In this document: positions 34,841 through 45,949 of the stretch, piece by piece
Layout of the letters: the number at the start of each line of letters is the position of its first letter
Position numbering within the stretch: position 1 is the first letter of the stretch
Origin: Chloroflexota bacterium
GTDB taxonomy: Bacteria; Chloroflexota; UBA11872; VXOZ01
Direction of reading: 5' to 3'
Length of the DNA stretch: 64,000 bases
Assembly (NCBI GenBank): GCA_965221905.1
Contig: OZ244922.1
Location: 2,400,001 to 2,464,000, forward strand
Program-made: the position numbers and the translations under genes
Notes under the pieces: generated by a model
What the model saw: the letters and a program-made list of their open reading frames with translations, nothing else
Databases searched by the model: none
What the model was told of the DNA's origin: nothing

Positions 34841-35788
34841 TCAAGAAAACGGCTGAATTGCGAGTTCTTGTCGGAAATATGCAATCGTCTCTGCCAAACC
34901 TTCTTCCAATGAGATTGCAGGATTCCAGCCCAGCCGATCTTGCGCCTTAGAAATGTCGGGACGGCGGCGCTTCGGATCATCGGCGGGCAGAGGCTTATGC
35001 ACGATGGGCACGTCGGTGCCGGTCAGGCGCACAATGATGTCCGCAAACTCGCGGATGGTGCGTTCATCAGGATTGCCAAGATTGATCACTTCCCCCTGCG
35101 TCTGGGCCGTGAACATGGCCGCTGCCATTCCGCGCACCAGGTCTCTCACGTAGCAGAACGAACGAGTCTGCATGCCATCCCCGTAAATCGTAATTGGCTG
35201 TCCCGACAATGCCTGCGCAACAAAATTCGGTACCACCCGCCCGTCGCCTGGATCATTGCGCGGTCCGTATGTGTTGAAGATGCGAATGATACGAGCATCC
35301 ACGTTGTGCTGGCGCACGTATTCCATGGTTAGGGCTTCACCGAAACGCTTCCCCTCGTCATAGCACGCCCGCGGCCCAACTGGGTTTACATTACCCCAAT
35401 ACGTCTCAGTCTGCGGATGCACTTGGGGATCGCCGTAGACCTCGGAAGTTGACGCAAAGAGGAATTTCGCGCCGTTCTCACGGGCTAGCGCCAGGAGTAC
35501 ATCTGTGCCGACGGAATTGACGCGCAACGTCTCAAAAGGATGACGCAGATAGCCTTCAGGACTGGCGGGGCTGGCGAGGTGAAATACCGCGTCTCCCTGC
35601 CAAGCGAACGCCTCGGTCACATCCCTTTCGAGCAGAGAGAACCTGTTATTCGCCGCTAGATGGGCAACATTCTTAGCGCGTCCGGTAATGCAGTTATCAA
35701 CGGCAGTGACAGAGTGCCCCTGCGCGATAAGGTAATCACAGAGATGGGATCCGATAAAACCCGCCCCACCCGCGACCAATATCCTCAC
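34841..35788 (-). CDS. UDP-glucuronate decarboxylase-like NAD-dependent epimerase/dehydratase
   Basis: GGAGFIGSHL, ASTSEVYG, YDEGKR, RIFNTYGP, DDPKRRRPDI. Confidence 0.92.
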   Translation of the reverse strand: MRILVAGGAGFIGSHLCDYLIAQGHSVTAVDNCITGRAKNVAHLAANNRFSLLERDVTEAFAWQGDAVFHLASPASPEGYLRHPFETLRVNSVGTDVLLALARENGAKFLFASTSEVYGDPQVHPQTETYWGNVNPVGPRACYDEGKRFGEALTMEYVRQHNVDARIIRIFNTYGPRNDPGDGRVVPNFVAQALSGQPITIYGDGMQTRSFCYVRDLVRGMAAAMFTAQTQGEVINLGNPDERTIREFADIIVRLTGTDVPIVHKPLPADDPKRRRPDISKAQDRLGWNPAISLEEGLAETIAYFRQELAIQPFS

Positions 35789-36053
35789 GGAATGCTCTAC
35801 TTTGCTGGTTGTCCACGACACGCGCGCTCATTGTAACATGCGCTCAATCCGGTCGTCCGCATGCACTATCTCTCTGCGTCGCGTACCTCGTTGACCATTG
35901 CGATAGGAGAAACGTGCCGTCTCAATGGGTCCCGTGCTTAATGTTGAGCGAACTACCGTATTAGCCGGGAGAGCTAAACAGACCGGGCCCTCAAAGCGTC
36001 ATCTGAAATGTCGGCACGTTCTATGGCACATGTGGAAATAGTGTAGTGAACAG

Positions 36054-36083
36054 TTGACTAATATGATGAAGGGGTGGTAAGAT
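36054..36083 (+). promoter_or_regulatory. 16S rRNA promoter
   Basis: TTGACT (36054-36059), 18-nt spacer, TGg-TAAGAT extended -10. Confidence 0.65.
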
Positions 36084-36216
36084 GATTTTTGCCTGTTTAT
36101 TAGCAGGTGGTTCTTTAACAGGTGAAGAGTGATGAAGGTAAAGGTGTTTATCGTAGGAGAGCGAGGGCCTAGCTTTTCCGGGATGAGGCGGTTTCAGTTA
36201 TTCTGTTATCCCTTTT

Positions 36217-37747
<1,531 letters not shown>

Positions 37748-37954
37748 CTAGGGTTTACTACCCATGACCTCCTGTCCCATCTAAATGCTTTCCCAACCTC
37801 TCCAACTTACACCCCCTTCATCACCCTCCACCTGCTAACCCAGCCACCTTTCACCATTCCAGACACTCTCCTAACCAATCTACCCCTCTCCACATGAGGG
37901 GTTCTTCTTTTCTATCCCCCCAGCCATCTCCCTACGGAAACCTTTGCGATGCCC

Positions 37955-38115
37955 CTTCCCCCGTCAAGGGGGAAGATGGGGATGAGGATGAAAAGGGCCT
38001 CACTCCAAGTTTCCAAACACTTTCCGCCTCCCCCTGGTTTCCGGCTTTCGCCGGAAAGACAGAGCTATGCATCGGGCTGCAAGTCCGCGCATGCCCCGTA
38101 CCCCGGATACGGGGG
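37955..38115. repeat. Cluster of REP-like palindromes in the 16S-tRNA spacer
   Basis: CTTCCCCC-GTCAA-GGGGGAAG (37955-37975), CTGGTTTCCGGCTTTCGCCGGAAAGAC (38034-38060), CCCCGTA...TACGGGG (38094-38114). Confidence 0.6.
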
Positions 38116-38440
38116 TCTCCAACAAGCAAGCATACAGACCCCGCAAGTGTGATCATCTCTTCCCCATCCAAGTAGCTGTCCATTGCCCGCTCCTATCTTC
38201 GTTCCCACCTTTCCTCTCCACCCTATCCACGTACTTCGGTGGGTGAGACACAGTTGTGCAAGCACCTCCATGGCATCGAACTACCCACCATGCAGCGGCT
38301 TGGCAGAGTTGCATACCGGCGTTTGCTGCGCTATATTCCTCCTGTGAGAAATGCGCTTTGCCTGCCACTAAATTGGCGACGTGCAGGCCAAGCCAAGGGT
38401 GGTACAATAAACAATAGACTGGCTTTACAGCGTATTCTGC

Positions 38441-38517
38441 GGGCCACTAGCTCAGTTGGTTAGAGCGCGCCCCTGATAAGGGCGAGGTCTGTGGTTCAAA
38501 TCCACAGTGGCCCACCA
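38441..38517 (+). tRNA. tRNA-Ile(GAT)
   Basis: Cloverleaf GGGCCAC...GTGGCCC-A-CCA, anticodon loop CT-GAT-AA, GTTCAAAT T-loop. Confidence 0.97.
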
Positions 38518-38734
38518 CGACGGCAGCGACACAACAGCCTCTCAGCATGTGCGGCACGGGCCGGTTCGGGTAGCAGAGAGATAGTTTTCACCGAGACGCC
38601 ATAGTGATTTCCGCCCTTAATGCACTAGAGATTTTCGGCTGACACGAACCAATGCGCCCATCGCGTCGCGAGTGCTCTGGGCCTGTTGTGAGTGTTTTGA
38701 TGCGCCTTAAGCGCACTGCGCGGCTGCCGGTCAC

Positions 38735-38810
38735 GGGGATGTAGCTCAGTTGGGAGAGCACCTCCTTTGCAAGGAGGGGGTCAGGAGTTCGAGTCTCCTC
38801 ATCTCCACCA
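38735..38810 (+). tRNA. tRNA-Ala(TGC)
   Basis: GGGGATG...CATCTCC-A-CCA with G3:U70, anticodon loop TT-TGC-AA. Confidence 0.97.
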
Positions 38811-39150
38811 GCGAATTTCAAAACGAAAGACTCTACGCCGGCATGGGTGAGAGGTGGCATGTAGTGGAACAAGACTATCTAGCTCAAACCTGTCGTGAGC
38901 AAGTGCAATTCGACGACATGCCCTTCCTTAATTCTGCAAATTCGGGGCCAATTGGCGTCATTCCCTTCACCACGAACAGATGTGGGGCGATTACTGCTCT
39001 GCAGATTGAACCCGAGCCAATTGAGTGCTCCAGCAACTAGACCGAAGCCAAATCTTGTCGAGACAGAACCAATTTGCTTTTGACTTGCTAAAGAGAGCCA
39101 ACTTGCATCTAATCTCTCAGAAGGCAGTCATCTTGGAATAATCGCTTATC

Positions 39151-40677
39151 GTGAGGATTGAGATGGTCACAGTTTCGGCGAAAGACTTCGGACCTATCAT
39201 TAGAGGAACCGTAGACCTAAAGCCGCTGACGATATTCATGGGCCGGAGCAACACGGGAAAGTCATTCATGGCTACAGCCATCTATGCCCTGATGACTGCC
39301 CTTTTCGAAGATGAGCCGGCCCTATACTCGTACGGTATGGGGATAACAGGGCGACACTTTTGGTCACTTCGAAGGTCGTTTGCATTTAGGGCACTGAAAT
39401 ACAAGCAGGAAGCTATTTCTCTTGCGATGCGAGATCTCCTCGAGTGGGCAGGGTCGCAGAGCGTGGATGACTTGGACACTGATGAATTCTCGGTTTCCGA
39501 CCTACCCGAGAGAGTACAGGAACTGCTAGAGTCTTCGATCGGTGAATACCTTGATTCACTGGGGGACAATGTAATCCAGCGACTGGTTCAAACCTACGGG
39601 GAATCTTCTGGATTTGTTAGAAGGGGAGAAGAGCCAAGAGATCCTCGGTTGTCTATTGAGCGGGACAATCCAAGTTTACATCTTGACATCGATTTGTCTG
39701 CTGCAGACGGAGTTTTTCATGAGTATGATATTTCTGATTTGAAATTACGTACTTCCCTCTTGGATGACTTCCCCGTCGATGCACATTTAGGTGATGAGAA
39801 TGAGACCATCCTCTTCCAAAACGTATTCAATGTGTTTGTGTCTACACTGATAGAACAGACTCTAATTGGACTACCACAAAAGAGCTTTTACTTGCCAGCA
39901 GCACGATCTGGAATAGCCCAAGGACACAAAGTCTTAGCGGCTTCCCTAGTTCGGCAATCAAGAAGAATAGGACTTGAGCCAGTAAACATTCCAACACTGC
40001 CAGGTATCGCCACGGAATTTCTTAGCCACATTATTGGGCTTGATAGACGCTCGAGGGCCCGGCCAAAGCAAGAAGGACTGCGTGGAGCAATTGACTTCAT
40101 TGAAAGAGAAGTCCTGCAAGGAAAGGTTTCCTTGGACGATTCCGGCGGTCTGCCCTATCCCGAGATCGTATACGAACAGACAGGGGTCCAACCATCGCCC
40201 GGAACTTTCACACTTGATCACACCTCGTCCATGGTTTCAGAACTTGCGCCACTGGTCTTATTCCTCAAGTACTTGGTGGCAGAAGGGAGCTTATTGATTC
40301 TTGAAGAGCCCGAATCCCATCTACATCCAGGTGCTCAGCGACAAATGGCCCGTGGAATCGCTCGATTGGTCAATGCTGGAATACGAGTAATTATAACCAC
40401 CCACAGTGACATGCTTGTCGCACAGATAAACAACCTCTTGCGCCTCAGCAATGCTAACAGTCGTTGGATTAGGGAGCACGGATTTCAGACTCAAGATTGC
40501 TTGCGGCAAGACCAAATCGGAGCATTCTTGTTTAAATATGACTCACAATTAGGAGGCAGCGTAATAAGTCCATTAGAGGTTGACCCTGAAACAGGTATAA
40601 ACGAAGAGGAGTTCGTTCGCGAAATTGAGCTCGTATACGATCAGACGATTGAGTTGCAGCGGACACACGAAGAGTGA
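39151..40677 (+). CDS. ABC-type (AAA_15/AAA_21-like) ATPase
   Basis: Walker A GRSNTGKS, LPAARSG, Walker B/D-loop LILEEPESHLHP, H-loop ITTHS. Confidence 0.88.
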   Translation: MRIEMVTVSAKDFGPIIRGTVDLKPLTIFMGRSNTGKSFMATAIYALMTALFEDEPALYSYGMGITGRHFWSLRRSFAFRALKYKQEAISLAMRDLLEWAGSQSVDDLDTDEFSVSDLPERVQELLESSIGEYLDSLGDNVIQRLVQTYGESSGFVRRGEEPRDPRLSIERDNPSLHLDIDLSAADGVFHEYDISDLKLRTSLLDDFPVDAHLGDENETILFQNVFNVFVSTLIEQTLIGLPQKSFYLPAARSGIAQGHKVLAASLVRQSRRIGLEPVNIPTLPGIATEFLSHIIGLDRRSRARPKQEGLRGAIDFIEREVLQGKVSLDDSGGLPYPEIVYEQTGVQPSPGTFTLDHTSSMVSELAPLVLFLKYLVAEGSLLILEEPESHLHPGAQRQMARGIARLVNAGIRVIITTHSDMLVAQINNLLRLSNANSRWIREHGFQTQDCLRQDQIGAFLFKYDSQLGGSVISPLEVDPETGINEEEFVREIELVYDQTIELQRTHEE

Positions 40678-41147
40678 CCCCAGTAAGAGTCCTAAAGAGA
40701 ATTCGCGAAATTCACGGTGACTGTTGCATCACAGACTCCTATGAAGACCGTGGTTGCAAAATCGATATACGTAGTTTAGGCAAGTCAGCACTTACAACGA
40801 TTCATGGAGATAAGCATCAAGAACTCCACGGTTTGGAAACAAAGCTCTGTGATCGTCTAGTATTTGGACAACGCGGCAAGATCTTCGTTTGCTCTGTCGA
40901 ACTGAAGGGCGGAAAAAACGTGGATGTCTCGAAGGCGATAACACAAGTCCAAGGTGGCTTGGATCTTGCAAGAGACCTGCTAAGCGCTCAGACTGAATGT
41001 GATTGGTACCCAATTCTGGCATACAGCGGTAGCTTGAGTGGCAAAGGGTTACAATTGTTGCGTGCTAAGACTGTGTCATTCCGCGGCAAGAAGAAGGTAG
41101 TGGTTCGCAAAGAGTGTGGGTTCAATCTACATAGTTACCTCTCTTAG
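40674..41147 (+). CDS. Small hypothetical protein, putative PD-(D/E)xK nuclease
   Basis: CD...VELKG...A..Q motif; GTGA overlap with the ATPase stop. Confidence 0.6.
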   Translation: MTPVRVLKRIREIHGDCCITDSYEDRGCKIDIRSLGKSALTTIHGDKHQELHGLETKLCDRLVFGQRGKIFVCSVELKGGKNVDVSKAITQVQGGLDLARDLLSAQTECDWYPILAYSGSLSGKGLQLLRAKTVSFRGKKKVVVRKECGFNLHSYLS

Positions 41148-41422
41148 ACTGACGCTATGGATTATTCCTAGATTGATTCAATGCGATCATTTACACGTCT
41201 TGGGGGAGAAACTGCGAGGAAGATTTGTTCCTCCGATTGGACAGAACTTTCGCGCTGGGGTGGCAGCTCTTATCCGGTAGCTGCTGTCAGTCTTGCCGCA
41301 GGCGAGCCCCAGAGTTGGATGGAGCGCCGCGTTGTCGCTGCCCAGATAGTCTTGAATATCCACCGACTCGGCAGACCCGACGTGTCTGTCCCAAACCGCC
41401 AAGATATGCGGGGCTATTCGCC

Positions 41423-42535
41423 ATGCTGAATCTCCCTCATGCCGATGTCGTTGGGAGCCTGATTAGACCACCGGAGCTACTCGCCGCGCGCGAGGAATTT
41501 GCGGCCGGGCGAATTTCGCCTTCGGAATTCAAGCGCGCCGAGGACGCCGCTGTCGATAGCGCCGTAGCTGCCCAGGAGGAGGCCGGACTTGAGATCCTCA
41601 CCGATGGCGAAATGCGCAGGCTCTCGTTCCAGAGTCAGATGCCCGAGGCAGTCGCAGGCTTTGGCGAGTTCGATATCGACGCGTTCCTCTGGGGCGATTG
41701 GCAGGGCGGCGAACGGGTAGGAAACTTGCGCAAGGAACGTCCTGCGACTCTGGGTGTCGTCGGTCCCCTCCAGCGGAAGCGCCACCTGTCGGCGGAGGAG
41801 TTCACCTACCTGCGCGGCCGCACCGCGCGCATAGCAAAGGTGACACTGCCGAGCCCCAGCCTGTTCGCCAACTTCTGGTCACCGGTGAAGTCTGCCGCAG
41901 CCTACCCCACGTTGGATGCGTTCTTGGCCGATGTCGCGCGGATAGTCCGTGGGGAGATCGAAGAGCTAATCAGGCTTGGGGCGACCTACATCCAACTCGA
42001 CGGTCCGCACTACCCACTCGTGCTGGATCCGGTGTGGGCGGCCTTCTACGAGGCCCAGGGTAGGTCTGCGGAGGACTGGATCGCCCAGGGCGTCGAGCTG
42101 GACAACGCCGTGATGGACGGTTTCTCGGAAGTAGTGTTCGCATTCCACCTCTGACGAGGGAACCAGGGCGGCCGTTGGCTGGTCGCAGGCAGTTACGACC
42201 GGATTGTTGAGCCGGTTCTCAAGCGCGTGAACGCGCAGCGGCTGATGCTGGAGTACGACGACCCACGCTCAGGCTCGTTCGAGCCTCTGCGCGGCGTGCC
42301 CAACGACAAGCTAGTGGCGCTTGGGCTGGTCACGACCAAGTCACCGCGCGCGGAGACCCCATCCGAGCTTGAGTCTAGGATCGCCGAGGCTGCCCGCCAC
42401 TTCCCTCTCGAGCAACTCGCCATCAGTCCTCAGTGCGGGTTCGGCTCATCCATCGTCGGCAATCCGCTTTCGATCGAGCAGCAAAACGCAAAACTCCGCA
42501 TCGTCGCCGAGACCGCCCGCAACGTTTGGGCGTAA
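41423..42535 (+). CDS. Cobalamin-independent methionine synthase II (MetE-like, single-barrel) family protein with in-frame UGA at codon 244 (putative Sec)
   Basis: ADVVGSLIRP, TDGEMRR, YIQLDGP, HL-[TGA]-RGN, LEYD, LGLVTTK, SPQCGF all in one frame. Confidence 0.85.
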
Positions 42536-42813
42536 ACTTTCCCGTCATGTTTACCATCGACTCACAGAGGGTCCCTTCCTCGGTGCCGTATAGCGGCCTT
42601 GGTAACGACCACCCACACCGTGACCCATAGTTTCTTGAACTGCCTATCGGAGCGGAGCAATGACATATACTCGTTCGGTATACCCCGCCTTCTATTCTTC
42701 CCTTTCTGGTATTGCATTGTTTCATGCATCGCCGGCCCAATTTCCCAGTGGCCCACCACCAAAAGCAGTGCCGGCATTCAGTAACCATTACCCTGTTATT
42801 CCAGCCGCCGCAC

Positions 42814-42889
42814 GGGAATGTAGCTCGGTTGGGAGAGCACCTCGTTTGCAAGGAGGGGGTCAGGAGTTCGAGTTTCCTCATCTCCACCA
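42814..42889 (+). pseudogene. Degenerate copy of tRNA-Ala(TGC)
   Basis: 72/76 identical to 38735-38810; changes hit the acceptor stem, A14, the anticodon stem and T-stem C61. Confidence 0.85.
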
Positions 42890-43168
42890 AACTGGACAAG
42901 ATTGCGAGCTTCCGTGTTGAGTTCGTTCTGGACCTCTAAGCCGCTGTTCTGCCCCGATAGGTTCCAATGAGCGTGGCAGTAAACTCCGAGAGGAAGTGGT
43001 CGCGCAGGAAGAAGCGAGCGGCAATGAACTTTGGAACGTCTCCCACAGGGAGGAGATTATTGGCAACCCTCCGCCAGCTCTCGGCTTGGCGAAGGTCGCA
43101 CCGCTAGTTCAGCGACAAGGAATAGCTATTGCTACTGTATAACGTGCAGGATCACAGGTTGTGGGTGT

Positions 43169-43858
43169 ATGACTGAACGCGAGCCGATTGAGGCTGTCAA
43201 GAACAAAGCCTATTGGCTAATCGAGCGCGTCGATGCAGCCCTAGAGGCTGGTGAGATTGACGAGTCCGAGTGGCACCGGCGTATCAGCGAATTCATCACG
43301 CACGCATATCTCTCTGCGGATACTCCCTGGAGTCAGTCCGGCAAGAGCGGGGACGTGCGGTCATGGGACTACGCACGGAGCCTCGTCTGCGACGCTATCC
43401 ACAAGGACGGCTCGTTCCTGGACGTCGGCTGCGCCAACGGATTCCTGATGGAGTGCGTCAAGAGGTGGGCGGCATTGAGGGGCCGCATAGTCGACCCGTA
43501 CGGTCTCGACATCTCGGTGGAGTTGGCCGACTTCGCCCGTAGTCGGCTGCCCGCTTGGGCCACAAGAATTCATACGGGAAACGTCCTGACGTGGCAACCC
43601 CCTCGGAGGTTCGACTTTGTGCGGACGGGATTAGAGTACGTACTGCCCCAACGGCGGCGCGAACTCCTGCAACGGCTCCTCGGCAAGTTTCTCGTTGAAG
43701 ACGGACGTCTCATTGTCGGAACCTACTACGGAGAGAGCCATGGGCCTGACTTGCTTGAAAAGGAACTCTCGGATTGGGGATTCACAGTGGCCGGGTCTAC
43801 GAGCCGCCCTCATCGCGACGATCGCCTCGTCTACCGCGTCCTGTGGATCGACAACTAA
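43169..43858 (+). CDS. Class I SAM-dependent methyltransferase
   Basis: FLDVGCANG, GLDIS, RFDFV. Confidence 0.85.
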   Translation: MTEREPIEAVKNKAYWLIERVDAALEAGEIDESEWHRRISEFITHAYLSADTPWSQSGKSGDVRSWDYARSLVCDAIHKDGSFLDVGCANGFLMECVKRWAALRGRIVDPYGLDISVELADFARSRLPAWATRIHTGNVLTWQPPRRFDFVRTGLEYVLPQRRRELLQRLLGKFLVEDGRLIVGTYYGESHGPDLLEKELSDWGFTVAGSTSRPHRDDRLVYRVLWIDN

Positions 43859-44070
43859 TCTCCTCCTATTTGGGGACCAGCCCGGCGGTCCTCGCTTCTT
43901 GACCTCAACGCGCTAGTCGCCGCCCGGCCCATGAGGACCGTCGGTGGCCTCGCAGTCCCATCCTCATCTCAAACATAATTCTGCCTACAGTCAACTCTAG
44001 CCCACCAATTCAGCACACCGACTCTCGTGGGTCGACAGGCCAGAGAAACAGGCCGGTTGGATATCCAACT

Positions 44071-44664
44071 ATGAGAATCAAAATTACCTCAGGCCTGCGC
44101 AATCAGCCACCTGCGTTTTGGGTCAATCTTGGCGTAAAGGTCGTCTTGATCACCTTGCTAGCGTTCGGCGCCTTCTCAGGACTGCAGCAATTCGAAGGTA
44201 AGGCTTTTGTCTGGCGGCTAGCCACCTACCCAAATGCAGCCTTTGTGGTCCCCGTCATTTGGGTAATACGAGCGCGAGGATCGCATTACCCGTACGCCGC
44301 GGACATCCTGCTCGCCCTGCCATTCCTCATCGACGCTATCGGCAATGCCGTGGATTTCTATGACTCCATCTGGTGGTGGGATGACGTGAACCACCTCGCA
44401 ATCTGGGCGCTGCTCTCCGGGGCTGTCGGCGCTTTGGCCTGGAGAAGCAACGTCCGCCCATGGCAGACCCTGGCGTTTGTCGTGGGATTCGGTGCGGTAA
44501 CCGCAATCCTGTGGTAAATCGAAGGGTACTTTGCCTTCATCCGCTTCTCATCAGAACTTGAAACAGCCTACGTCGACACACTGGGCGACATGTCTTTGGG
44601 CCTGACCGGCGCGGTCTAGGCCGGACTGTTTGCCGCCCTGGCTCCTCACCGCAAGCAGTCATGA
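44071..44664 (+). pseudogene. Membrane protein gene broken by two nonsense codons
   Basis: Hydrophobic ORF with WWWDDVNH continues past TAA 44515 as W*IEGYFAFIR...DTLGD, then TAG, then TGA 44662. Confidence 0.65.
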
Positions 44665-44938
44665 TTGCCATGCGCTTGAGAAAGCTCTACAGGTTTTAGC
44701 GTCTTGCTGAGGAAGCTCCCGCAACCATCACACCGTTAGCCTTAAACGCTCAGGTGTCCTATGGTCGACAAGGCGTGGACCTATCTGTTGCCTGGGTAAC
44801 GATTGCACATCGTAGAAGGATGGAATTACACTATGGTTGCGGATTTCTAGACTTACTTGGGGCCTTGCCGTAGGCTAGATATAGACCCGAGGCACGAGCC
44901 GAAAACAGCAATCACGAGATGATTACCCGGAGAGTAGA

Positions 44939-45949
44939 GTGGCGAAGTACAAGATCATGGCACGGGGCCGACCCAATGTGCCTGGCGACTACACATTTGA
45001 GTTGGAGTCACTGAAGGGCGTGGATGCCCAGCTTGAGGAAGTCATCGCAGCGTCAGACGATGAGTTCGTGCATGGAGCGCAGGACGCTGACGCTCTCATA
45101 GTGAGGGGTGGGCCCGTTACAGAGAAAGTCATCAACGGGCTACAAAAGTGCAAGATCATCGCACTGGATAGTGTGGGCACTAATCACGTAGATATCTCGG
45201 CAGCTACGGCCAAGGGCATCCCGGTAACCAACTGCCCCGATATCAACATCCAGGAGGTTGCGGAACACACGGCGACGCTAATCCTGGCCGCTCACCGCCG
45301 GCTGCTGCTCATGGACAAAGTGGTCCGAGAAGGTGGCTGGTGGGAGGGACATCCACCTTTACGTCAGTTGCCCCGATTGTACGGTCAGACCCTTGGGTTT
45401 ATCTCCTTTGGAAATGTCCCCAGGGCCGTTGTGCCATTGATGAAGCCGTTTGGCCTCCGCCTCCTCGCCTACGATCCCTTCGTCATGGAGACCACAGTGA
45501 TTCAGCACGGGGTGGAGCCGGTCGGCTTGGAAGACCTGTTACAGCGGTCGGATATCGTCTCGAACCATCTGCCCGGATCCGGTGGCACGACCAAGATGAT
45601 TGGGGAAGAGCAATTCAGGCTGATGAAGCCCCAGGCGATATTCGTGAACACCGGCAGAGGCACCACCGTGGACGAGGCTGCTATGATACGGGCCTTGGAC
45701 GAAGGCTGGATAGCTCACGCAGCGCTGGACGTGCTGGAAAAGGAACCGCCTGATCCCAGCAATGCCCTGTTCAACATGGATAACGTCACTCTGACGCCCC
45801 ACGTGGCCTCTGCATCATCCAGGGTCTTCGAAGTGAGCAGACGTCGCGTGGGAATGGAGATCGCGCTGGTGCTGGGAGGCCGCTGGCCTATGTCTTGCGT
45901 TAATCCGTCGGTACTAAGCAACTCCGGCCTTCTGAAGTGGCAGTCCTAG
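44939..45949 (+). CDS. D-isomer-specific 2-hydroxyacid dehydrogenase (CtBP-like)
   Basis: GIPVTNCPD, AYDP, VNTGRG, ALDVLEKEP, LTPHVA. Confidence 0.9.
   Translation: MAKYKIMARGRPNVPGDYTFELESLKGVDAQLEEVIAASDDEFVHGAQDADALIVRGGPVTEKVINGLQKCKIIALDSVGTNHVDISAATAKGIPVTNCPDINIQEVAEHTATLILAAHRRLLLMDKVVREGGWWEGHPPLRQLPRLYGQTLGFISFGNVPRAVVPLMKPFGLRLLAYDPFVMETTVIQHGVEPVGLEDLLQRSDIVSNHLPGSGGTTKMIGEEQFRLMKPQAIFVNTGRGTTVDEAAMIRALDEGWIAHAALDVLEKEPPDPSNALFNMDNVTLTPHVASASSRVFEVSRRRVGMEIALVLGGRWPMSCVNPSVLSNSGLLKWQS

Follow-up and report, generated by a model that had tools for sequence, protein, structure and literature searches.

The window analysed here is a stretch of 64,000 nucleotides from the genome of a Chloroflexota bacterium (assembly GCA_965221905.1, contig OZ244922.1, positions 2,400,001 to 2,464,000). 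On its forward strand, the ORF listing places two open reading frames, 41225..42154 (+) and 42227..42535 (+), in the same frame and parted by the TGA at 42152-42154. A preliminary description of this DNA had taken this TGA to be the only barrier within a 370-codon read-through, and the listing and the translation bear this out: with TGA rendered as U, translation from the ATG at 41423 yields 370 residues and recodes one codon only, U244, in the context ...FAFHL-U-RGNQGG..., before terminating at the TAA at 42533-42535. The features discussed below are the coding sequence of the putative MetE-like selenoprotein (41423..42535, +), its in-frame UGA at codon 244, predicted to encode selenocysteine (Sec; 42152..42154, +), and a candidate bacterial SECIS hairpin (42166..42184, +) that occupies nt 15-33 counted from the U of the UGA.

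A MetE-like protein with UGA at a predicted zinc-ligand position

The only Pfam domain in the 370-residue protein is PF01717 (Meth_synt_2, the MetE catalytic domain), which matches residues 9-340 with 63.1 bits (gathering cut-off 21). The N-terminus reads ML[ND]LPHAD in 14/14 orthologs of the genus. An AlphaFold model of the protein (pLDDT 75.4, pTM 0.81) resembles 1ypx, MesD and the catalytic domains of MetE in a structure search (TMq 0.67-0.73), and in HMMER the Listeria protein of PDB entry 1ypx matches end to end (E 2.8e-47), with 'hiCRGN' over 'hlURGN'. The score for the two-domain MetE model TIGR01371 (47 bits) lies far below its cut-off of 930. The scores for NF005085 (217.4, cut-off 313) and NF004875 (200.7, cut-off 576) also fall short, suggesting a separate subfamily, though one that is related end to end.

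Across the related loci no conserved gene neighbourhood was found, most of the shared clusters being spurious ORFs that overlap the gene itself; the true neighbours, a methyltransferase-like gene and a 2-hydroxyacid dehydrogenase, are common to loci within the genus only. As the genome also encodes other PF01717 and PF02574 enzymes, a role of this protein as methionine synthase is not forced.

The zinc ligands of E. coli MetE are residues 641, 643, 665 and 726, and it binds homocysteine through S433, E484 and D599, according to the accessible text of Price et al. (2021; PMC7857596). In our MAFFT alignment (A1), H242 (codon 42146..42148, +), U244, E277 (42251..42253, +, within LMLEYDD) and C338 (42434..42436, +, within SPQCGF) lie over H641, C643, E665 and C726, respectively, and S12, E63 and D193 lie over S433, E484 and D599. 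The alignment thus shows the predicted Sec244 in place of the first cysteine of the His-x-Cys...Glu...Cys zinc site, exactly where the preliminary description had put it. Identity to E. coli MetE is about 20-22%, and pairwise BLASTP misplaces the HxC motif by two residues, whereas HMMER and MAFFT both set H-x-C on H-x-C; the zinc-site assignment was therefore taken from the latter two. Each of the seven positions is conserved in 30/30 Sec forms (with U244 for Cys) and in 94/94 Cys forms, except for S12, which is kept in 92/94 (two gaps). By homology, selenium of Sec244 would be a ligand of the zinc.

Conservation of the UGA codon and its decoding

The TGA is not unique to this genome. Among 22 distinct close orthologs, codon 244 is TGA in 15 and TGC or TGT in 7. 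Within the genus, an ortholog is present in 13 of 16 other genomes, 10 of which carry TGA and three TGC/TGT at the identical codon, and there is no other stop in these genes. Eight more loci at 85-89% identity divide evenly (4 TGA, 4 Cys), and among 80 metagenome loci at 58-68% identity the codon is TGA in 15 and Cys in 65. The frame is intact in 15/15 close Sec forms, and after the TGA it stays open for 126-128 codons in 14/15 metagenome Sec loci, the fifteenth running off its contig. The TGA codon is also spanned, with no listed difference, by contigs from an independent DNA run and two metatranscriptome libraries; these contigs attest the TGA in other data sets rather than expression level or transcript ends, as DNA may be present in RNA libraries.

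A recent TGC-to-TGA nonsense mutation creating a pseudogene, or a sequencing or assembly error, would require one base only, since TGA is a single change away from TGC and TGT. Such an origin is nevertheless hardly credible in view of a TGA that is common to 15 distinct close orthologs from separate assemblies and 15 divergent metagenome loci, that recurs in contigs from further libraries of DNA and of RNA, and that is followed by an intact and constrained frame. The selective constraint, which the preliminary description had proposed to compare on both sides of the UGA, is not relaxed downstream: for 105 Sec-Sec pairs, dN/dS is 0.128 in codons 1-243, 0.180 in codons 245-370 and 0.217 in codons 245-268. 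In alignment A3, G246, N247 and Q248 are invariant and R245 is nearly so. When distinct codons are counted per sliding window in 14 orthologs, the window after the UGA is tied for the lowest value (1.67), which is unremarkable.

These data also bear on a reading of the UGA as a true stop, in which the gene would be split into residues 1-243 and a restart product that assemble with each other, or in which the 243-residue N-terminal part would be the sole product. Public gene callers do annotate the 243-residue product, and in-frame GTG, ATG or TTG codons are available downstream at codon 265, 269 or 275. However, the first of these restart codons is not conserved, its position (265, 269 or 275) varying by genome, and the stretch of 24 codons from the UGA to the restart in the window, R245-Q248 included, is under purifying selection (the value of 0.217 above). 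Furthermore, a 243-residue product would be devoid of the zinc ligands E277 and C338, and relatives carry a cysteine at codon 244, not a gene boundary. We consider termination at this codon very unlikely, also because the full Sec machinery is present in the same organisms, as set out below.

Among the best 120 protein clusters in public databases, 62 stop exactly at ...FHL or ...FHI, the truncation that the preliminary description had suggested looking for, 57 are full-length with HxC[RK]GN and one is of another kind. The truncated entries are proteins of 242-243 residues and include NCBI-sourced members; the 62 clusters by themselves represent several hundred sequences. The Sec form is common in environmental bacteria, where it is deposited as a truncated protein.

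A single base, at codon 244, separates Sec from Cys forms, which are otherwise about 90% identical. A tree of the family needs 13 Sec/Cys changes, of which the starred branches force at least five, showing that the forms identified from their codons have repeatedly interchanged within the family. Judged from its early branching, under a weak rooting, and from its share of roughly half of the best database clusters, the Sec form seems to be of old origin and wide distribution.

The genome encodes the machinery that Sec insertion would need. The genes selD (380 bits, with an in-frame TGA of its own), selA (566 bits), selB (361 bits) and tRNA-Sec (67 bits) all score above their curated cut-offs, so that each of the genes named for checking in the preliminary description is accounted for, and ARAGORN reports a tRNA-SeC with anticodon tca. 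In 10/10 other carrier genomes examined, Sec-form and Cys-form alike, selA is likewise above its cut-off.

Alternatively, the UGA could specify one of the standard amino acids, Cys, Trp or Gly, through near-cognate decoding or reassignment. UGA followed by C is a weak termination context in bacteria, and 28/30 Sec forms have this C. Genome-wide, however, TGA behaves as an ordinary stop: of 16,909 pairs of same-frame ORFs with a TGA between them, only 177 appear to be coding before and after it, and the majority of these are adjacent genes. Of the 177 candidates, those with recognisable motifs were examined further, and the few with a Pfam domain across the TGA are classical selenoproteins, namely SelD, AhpC/redoxin proteins with UxxC, and OsmC. 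Together with the dedicated tRNA-Sec, SelA and SelB encoded by this genome, these observations make decoding as a standard amino acid highly improbable, and the hairpin described in the next section points the same way. On the sequence data, the gene most likely represents a genuine, widespread selenoprotein family, in which the UGA encodes Sec rather than marking a nonsense mutation. Each of the refuting conditions set out in the preliminary description was checked, and all of the results favour Sec.

The candidate SECIS element

Downstream of the UGA, a core stem is formed by CGGCC (42169-42173) and GGCTG (42177-42181) around the loop GTT (42174-42176), and exactly 19 nt (42155-42173) separate the UGA from the G of the loop. 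RNAfold adds the outer pairs G15-C33 (42166/42184) and G16-U32 (42167/42183) around a G17/G31 mismatch. In most Sec forms the hairpin has a local minimum free energy (MFE) between -9.1 and -12.5 kcal/mol, and 25/30 reach -7.5 or lower. The published bacterial SECIS (bSECIS) consensus, as given in the legend to Fig. 2 of its source, has a loop of 3-9 nt, a stem of 4-16 bp, a G in the first two loop positions, a spacing of 16-37 nt from the UGA and an MFE of -7.5 or better (PMC13188914). The hairpin agrees with this model in its 3-nt GUU loop, 5-bp core, 19-nt spacing and energy.

Support for the hairpin comes from the comparison of Sec and Cys forms. Among the Sec forms, 28/30 combine the five core pairs with a G[G/U] loop, versus 16/94 among the Cys forms, and the difference persists among sequences that code for the identical peptide RGNQG[GS]RWL (26/28 Sec versus 8/36 Cys). 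At loop position 24, which is the third base of an Arg codon, the Sec forms have G or U only (15 each, n = 30), versus C 49, U 22, G 20 and A 3 in the Cys forms, in which C or A thus accounts for 52/94. The specificity of the G[G/U]-loop hairpin for TGA forms also argues against the reading of UGA as a standard amino acid. Its occurrence in 16 of the 94 Cys forms implies that part of the hairpin follows from the peptide Q-G-[GS]-R-W-L. A tree-corrected test of the association of Sec with the hairpin retains 5 independent pairs, about 3 of which change in the same way and 0 in the opposite way, a consistent direction that falls short of significance (sign-test median p 0.25).

Taken by itself, the hairpin is weak evidence. 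The fold of the 74-nt region has no extra stability over shuffled sequences (z = -0.04), and when 1500 in-frame coding positions of the genome were drawn at random, 14.3% had a bSECIS-like hairpin of -7.5 kcal/mol or lower and 6.5% reached the level of the target hairpin (-10.0); these pass rates are rough, as the detector was a simple, in-house one that missed the three redoxin genes, in which the stem is bulged near the loop. Given the random-position rate and the shuffle result, it is the comparative evidence that makes the case. A search of Rfam gave no SECIS or other family above threshold, with chance-level matches to snoRNAs and sRNAs (E >= 0.03). The covariation analysis that had been suggested for the region after the UGA yielded no pair with a significant two-sided change: there is no compensatory covariation in the hairpin, where the changes affect one side only and shuffles give values equal to those observed. 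The contrast of Sec and Cys forms at synonymous sites may be a simple way to find a SECIS element when covariation is absent.

The structural proposals of the preliminary description fared unevenly. Its first hairpin, at 42169-42181 with a G-first loop 19 nt after the UGA, is the one retained here. Its extension of that stem by ACCA/TGGT (42162-42165 / 42180-42183) clashes with the GGCTG arm at 42180-42181, and the overlap makes it an alternative register, not an extension. The second stem that it had offered as an alternative SECIS (42179-42185 / 42196-42202) is present in the RNAfold MFE structure of this genome but is not conserved: across 14 distinct close Sec forms, 6 of its cells are unpaired, and the 15 divergent Sec forms lack its 3' arm. 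A long-range stem closing both hairpins, GGGAACC/GGUUCUC, was likewise rejected, being lost in relatives that read GGUGCUC.

Proposed function and comparison with known systems

The explanation that we favour, with a probability of about 0.8, is that the product of the gene is a MetE-like, zinc-dependent thiol methyltransferase of a single domain (PF01717, of the 'cobalamin-independent methionine synthase II' type), for which the UGA at codon 244 is decoded as Sec. SelB and tRNA-Sec would be directed to the UGA by the short GC-rich hairpin, with its G-[U/G]-U loop beginning 19 nt further on. By analogy with MetE, His242, Sec244, Glu277 and Cys338 would hold the catalytic zinc, which would activate the thiol of homocysteine, or of a closely similar compound, for methyl transfer; the conserved Ser12, Glu63 and Asp193 would bind this substrate. 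As a folate-binding domain is lacking, the methyl donor is presumably not folate. A selenolate ligand would be softer than a thiolate and more readily re-reduced after oxidation; Sec may therefore shield a zinc site that is prone to oxidation, adjust how reactive the zinc-bound thiolate of the substrate is, or do both.

Sec might also be inserted at this position and not, or not only, serve as a passive zinc ligand: it could be the nucleophile that accepts the methyl group of an unusual donor as a Se-methyl intermediate and hands it on, or, in this subfamily, bind another metal or act on a selenium-containing substrate. Several features of the family leave room for this, such as its single Pfam domain with neither a folate- nor a corrinoid-binding domain, the lack of a partner gene conserved alongside, the family-specific inserts just after HxU (RGNQGGRWLVxGxYD) that are absent from MetE, and the MetE-type and PF02574 methyltransferases that the genome already has. 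On the other hand, the zinc and homocysteine positions of MetE are invariant in the 124 members, which fits the ordinary MetE mechanism, and Cys forms are frequent and interchange with Sec, indicating that Cys can do the job of residue 244. We regard such an additional role as unlikely, though less so than the alternatives discussed above, and prefer Sec244 as a ligand of a MetE-type zinc.

To our knowledge, nearly all Sec residues described so far are redox-active or are ligands of redox metals (Mo, W, Ni). Sec on the Lewis-acid zinc of a methyltransferase would widen the chemistry for which the cost of selenocysteine is paid, and the Sec and Cys forms would provide a natural pair for probing the effect of selenium on a zinc-thiolate alkylation site. 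There is a small chance that this enzyme family is the first in nature to have a selenolate ligand on a zinc that is catalytic and redox-inert, the boldest form of this reading being that Sec is a super-nucleophilic methyl relay (Se-methyl-Sec). If such a relay existed, a stand-alone MetE barrel could use a donor that is poor for the Cys forms, without a folate or corrinoid domain.

No MetE-like PF01717 family appears in the accessible part of a catalogue from 2026 that covers 119 families of prokaryotic selenoproteins (PMC13188914), and the main text of deep-Sep has 0 mentions of methionine synthase, MetE, methyltransferase, zinc or Chloroflex. Our literature search, which had supplementary tables (deep-Sep, the ISME J 2016 survey, GOS) and subscription papers outside its scope, found no report of a MetE-like or COG0620 selenoprotein. 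The absence from the 119-family catalogue suggests that selenoproteome surveys probably miss a common family.

With MetE (E. coli b3829), the protein shares the (beta/alpha)8 fold of the catalytic domain (TMq 0.67-0.73 against structures of MetE), the His-x-Cys...Glu...Cys zinc positions and the Ser/Glu/Asp homocysteine positions. It differs in its length of 370 residues (about 750 in MetE), in extra segments after HxC, in the UGA that encodes its first zinc-site position, and in the lack of the N-terminal folate domain, which makes 5-methyl-tetrahydrofolate polyglutamate an unlikely donor. The 370-residue 'methionine synthase II' proteins (1ypx, NF005085/NF004875, Firmicute YxjG/YxjH) have the same length and architecture, and we know of no Sec form among the Firmicute YxjG/YxjH proteins. 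In lactobacilli, yxjH is under methionine T-box control and is co-transcribed with luxS, as described in the accessible text of PMC6004538, which suggests a methionine/homocysteine role for proteins of this type.

The MesA-MesD proteins are MetE homologues of a single domain, in which the zinc and homocysteine residues are retained and the methyl donors are not folates, and the portion of the source available to us describes no Sec in them (PMC7857596). MesD (3rpd), the member compared, is the second-best fold match, with a weak sequence match (E 2.6e-7). No MesX, corrinoid-protein or CoFeSP partner adjoins the gene in the window or in the related loci.

Selenoproteins of methyl or alkyl transfer are catalogued, at least in Table 1 of the source, as arsenite methyltransferase, MduS and methylated-DNA-protein-cysteine methyltransferase (PMC13188914). 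These belong to NF008823, PF13649 and PF01035, and in the part of the catalogue available none is PF01717 or is described as having Sec as a zinc ligand. MtaA-like corrinoid methyltransferases have been tied to selenium metabolism, and not to Sec in MetE, in the accessible text of PMC10418091.

The closest parallels for the proposed role of Sec may be formate dehydrogenase (Mo/W) and [NiFeSe] hydrogenase (Ni), in which Sec likewise replaces a metal-ligand Cys and Cys homologues coexist. In [NiFeSe] hydrogenase, Sec appears to guard the Ni from irreversible over-oxidation (in the available sections of PMC13188914), the same rationale as we propose here for an oxidation-prone zinc site. In contrast to those oxidoreductases with redox metals, the family described here, known from sequence, would place Sec on a redox-inert Lewis-acid zinc in the service of methyl transfer.

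Reading frame and predicted zinc site of the MetE-like protein

The TGA at window positions 42152-42154 was read directly, and the ORF listing of the window places the ORFs 41225..42154 and 42227..42535 in a single shared frame. Translation of 41423-42535 (+) with TGA as selenocysteine (Sec, U) gives 370 residues with U244 as the sole recoded codon, in ...EVVFAFHL-U-RGNQGGRWLV..., confirming the two same-frame ORFs parted by TGA and the 370-codon read-through of the preliminary description. The protein has a single Pfam domain, PF01717 (Meth_synt_2; 63.1 bits, cut-off 21). Two 370-residue NCBIfam 'methionine synthase' models match it end to end below their cut-offs (217 vs 313; 201 vs 576), the full-length MetE equivalog scores far under its cut-off, and no NCBIfam selenoprotein model matches. 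The closest solved structure is 1ypx (E 2.8e-47), a Listeria 'putative B12-independent methionine synthase family protein' with 'hiCRGN' opposite 'hlURGN'.

E. coli MetE is described as binding zinc through His641, Cys643, Glu665 and Cys726, and homocysteine through Ser433, Glu484 and Asp599 (Price et al., 2021, PMC7857596). The catalytic half of E. coli MetE was placed in a MAFFT alignment together with the window protein, three paralogues from the same genome and five family members (E. coli numbering checked). H242, U244, E277 and C338 align with the four zinc ligands, and S12, E63 and D193 with the substrate residues, all in invariant columns. Across 124 family sequences the seven positions are conserved, bar S12 (92 of 94 Cys forms, two gaps). 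Pairwise BLASTP alone puts the HxC motif off register by two residues, so the site mapping rests on profile and multiple alignments. Both this alignment and the profile match to 1ypx set the TGA on the HxC cysteine, as had been proposed; judged from sequence, the Sec position lies within the MetE zinc motif.

Conservation and spread of the UGA codon

Recoding signals and conservation are both evident at this codon. When the 3.52-Mb genome was searched for selA, selB, selC and selD, we found selA (566 bits) and selB (361 bits) by profile search, selD (380 bits), which itself carries an in-frame TGA (...AACAG-U-AGKLGP...), and tRNA-Sec (67 bits, anticodon TCA). In 10 of 10 further carrier genomes checked selA scored over the cut-off, Sec and Cys forms alike.

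An ortholog is present in 13 of 16 other same-genus genomes (90-96% identity), with one TGA, at the identical codon, in 10; the remaining three have TGC or TGT, and there are zero other stops. Eight more loci (85-89% identity), four with TGA and four with Cys, came from scanning species-representative genomes; they lie in MAGs titled Dehalococcoidia. The TGA is therefore not genome-specific, occurring in 15 of 22 distinct coding sequences against 7 with Cys. For codons upstream of the UGA, 105 Sec-Sec pairs give a dN/dS of 0.128, and for those downstream 0.180; the 24 codons that separate the UGA from the window sequence's earliest candidate restart codon give 0.217. Candidate restart codons are unconserved. 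The DNA tree of the 22 sequences and two outgroups needs four Sec/Cys changes within the clade, three of them forced by starred branches.

In other data, a 1004-nt contig from the DNA run of a second study spans the UGA (2 differences), as do metatranscriptome contigs of 963 nt in library one (32 differences) and 325 nt in library two (5 differences). None of the differences listed in these three data sets falls at 42152-42154; since 9 more lie beyond those listed and RNA libraries can contain DNA, the contigs show the presence of the TGA, not expression.

Among the 98 genomes of the window's GTDB class, a close ortholog is found only in the window's genus (14 of 98 genomes). Of 401 genomes sampled evenly across the phylum, 57 have a homologue with an E-value of at most 1e-90, with TGA only in that genus. 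The protein database query was limited to residues 1-243, which gives truncated entries the same chance of ranking high as full-length ones. Proteins annotated as ending at ...FHL, whose existence had been anticipated, are abundant: of the best 120 clusters (67-98% identity), 62 have ...FHL or ...FHI as their exact C-terminus, 57 carry HxC[RK]GN in a full-length protein and one is cut in another way. Cluster members come from NCBI, ENA, JGI and Logan, and include ABZ09368.1 (GenBank, 'putative Methionine synthase, vitamin-B12 independent', uncultured marine microorganism). Scanning metagenomes with the family alignment gave 80 loci at 58-68% identity (TGA 15, TGC 42, TGT 23); in 14 of 15 the frame runs on past the TGA for 126-128 codons and closes at the usual end, and the other reaches the contig edge. 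The 124-sequence protein tree, from which the SECIS-coding columns had been removed beforehand, needs 13 Sec/Cys changes, at least five forced by starred branches; several Sec lineages branch early in it, under a weakly supported rooting.

The candidate SECIS hairpin

The hairpin proposed in the preliminary description has arms at 42169-42173 and 42177-42181 (+) and a GTT loop at 42174-42176, 19 nt from the UGA; arms, G-first loop and spacing are as claimed. Its supposed ACCA/TGGT extension overlaps one arm and is thus an alternative register. The second stem (42179-42202) is likewise present and appears in the RNAfold MFE fold, but its 3' arm is gone in divergent metagenome Sec forms. The consensus bacterial SECIS is summarized as a 3-9 nt loop on an upper stem of 4-16 bp, with a G among the loop's two leading bases, usually then G or U, 16-37 nt off the UGA and with an MFE of -7.5 kcal/mol or better (Zhang et al., 2026, PMC13188914). 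The first hairpin is inside these ranges for loop, stem, spacing and MFE: its G-U-U loop has 3 nt, two outer pairs add to a core stem of 5 bp, the UGA is 19 nt away, and in most Sec forms the local MFE lies between -9.1 and -12.5. It recurs in divergent metagenome Sec forms as CAGCC-GGU-GGCUG, often with eight continuous pairs.

Most of the hairpin falls on third codon positions, which allows a comparison of Sec with Cys forms. Five core pairs with a G[G/U] loop occur in 28/30 Sec and 16/94 Cys forms, and in 26/28 and 8/36 of those coding for RGNQG[GS]RWL, in sequences that are related to one another. Counting from the U of UGA, loop position 24 (third base of an Arg codon) is G in 15 and U in 15 Sec forms, never C or A, vs C 49, U 22, G 20 and A 3 in Cys forms; position 18 is C in 29/30 vs 45/94, and position 30 is G in 28/30 vs 45/94. 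After tree correction, with only five independent pairs, the association of hairpin and Sec is not significant. The proposed covariation check after the UGA gave the hairpin no support, there being no compensatory covariation; the wider fold is of unremarkable stability, and Rfam has no match for the region. By our own detector, 14.3% of randomly chosen coding positions have a bSECIS-like hairpin. Other in-frame-TGA genes of the genome, namely selD (loop GUU), OsmC, thioredoxin-like and phosphatase-like genes, also have short, GC-rich stems under a G-first loop. We take the first hairpin to be the SECIS, on support that is good but not conclusive.

Genomic setting, proposed role and relation to known selenoproteins

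Upstream of the gene lie a 16S rRNA gene (36217-37747, +) followed by two tRNA genes (38441-38514 and 38735-38807); no 23S or 5S rRNA was found within 35000-45000 of the window, and the rRNA operon may be unlinked. A 508-residue AAA_15/AAA_21 ATPase of the AbiEii/OLD-like kind (Pfam; 39151-40677, +) overlaps by 4 nt a 157-residue ORF without a Pfam match (40674-41147, +), and the two may form a defence module. About 280 nt downstream of the MetE-like gene is a tRNA gene (42814-42886, +; 47.7 bits), which sits within a spurious minus-strand ORF of 158 residues. In the window, the defence-like ATPase gene lies on one side of the MetE-like gene and this tRNA gene on the other. The Dehalococcoidia-titled MAGs holding the 85-89% copies (among related loci L066-L073 and L078) are absent from the 98 class genomes, and titles and run labels indicate sponge and coral metagenomes. 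Restriction to one genus within the class, close copies in those MAGs and these flanks suggest horizontal transfer between Chloroflexota lineages sharing a habitat.

Six further likely selenoprotein genes, all with a Pfam or TIGR domain across the TGA, lie on the same genome (contig coordinates 414913-415356 (+), 2780912-2781580 (+), 2781869-2782513 (-), 1305837-1306262 (-), 540714-541199 (-) and 1231800-1232900 (-)). They comprise three AhpC/redoxin proteins (FWTY[TG]-U-xxC), two of whose genes adjoin on opposite strands, an OsmC-like protein (GT-U-TAMT), a weak thioredoxin-like match (NY-U-GGS) and SelD (CAG-U-AGK). Also outside the window, the gene at 3177651-3178115 (-) encodes 154 residues that include a phosphatase domain of dual-specificity/PTP type (PF22784 5.7e-15, PF00782 1e-08); it has TGA at the catalytic-Cys position (...LIH-U-GSGFGGAGT...) and a G-first-loop hairpin (-12.5 kcal/mol) about 21-22 nt 3' of it. 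This TGA is present in 17/17 genus genomes and in two genomes of another family (43-44% identity); paralogues at greater distance lack a stop. DSP-type phosphatases are absent from the 119-family catalogue (PMC13188914), and the protein may represent a second selenoprotein family not yet reported.

Zinc would be bound by His242, Sec244, Glu277 and Cys338, and homocysteine or an analogue held by Ser12, Glu63 and Asp193; the substrate thiolate would be activated on zinc and methylated from a non-folate donor. No conserved neighbour hinting at this donor was found in the window or at related loci. The genome has four PF02574 (homocysteine S-methyltransferase domain) genes and three additional PF01717 loci. 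Two of the latter (2270241-2272156 (-) and 770627-772260 (+)) are adjacent ORFs of ~290-330 residues with PF01717 in both members, and from their domain content look like split MetE-type methionine synthases. The selenoprotein is therefore not the only MetE-family enzyme of the genome, and given these genes its activity is probably a specialised or conditional one and not that of a sole methionine synthase.

Oxidation is known to target the cysteines at the MetE zinc site: B. subtilis MetE is reported to be S-bacillithiolated at its Zn-binding Cys730, and YxjG likewise (PMC4360819). In [NiFeSe] hydrogenase, Sec is described as apparently protective against irreversible metal over-oxidation (PMC13188914). 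The most economical reading of Sec in place of Cys is that the selenolate would be easily re-reduced and would render the zinc-bound substrate thiolate more reactive.

Whether this family had already been reported as a selenoprotein had been left open. The 119 families and subfamilies of prokaryotic selenoproteins tabulated in the 2026 review (its Table 1) do not include this family, and it was not found in the text of that review either (PMC13188914). Methionine synthase and MetE are absent from the main texts of the GOS, Sargasso Sea and deep-Sep papers, as is homocysteine from the first two. The main texts of the openly accessible literature yielded no report of a Sec-containing MetE-like family. 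What is new, as far as the searchable literature goes, is the combination of Sec decoding with a MetE-type enzyme, which is chemically unusual because Sec would sit at a Lewis-acid zinc site. Decoding itself follows the usual bacterial route for Sec, and the fold is known: the AlphaFold model (mean pLDDT 75.4, pTM 0.81, from a 10-row alignment) resembles 1ypx, MesD (3rpd) and the MetE catalytic domains at TMq 0.67-0.73.
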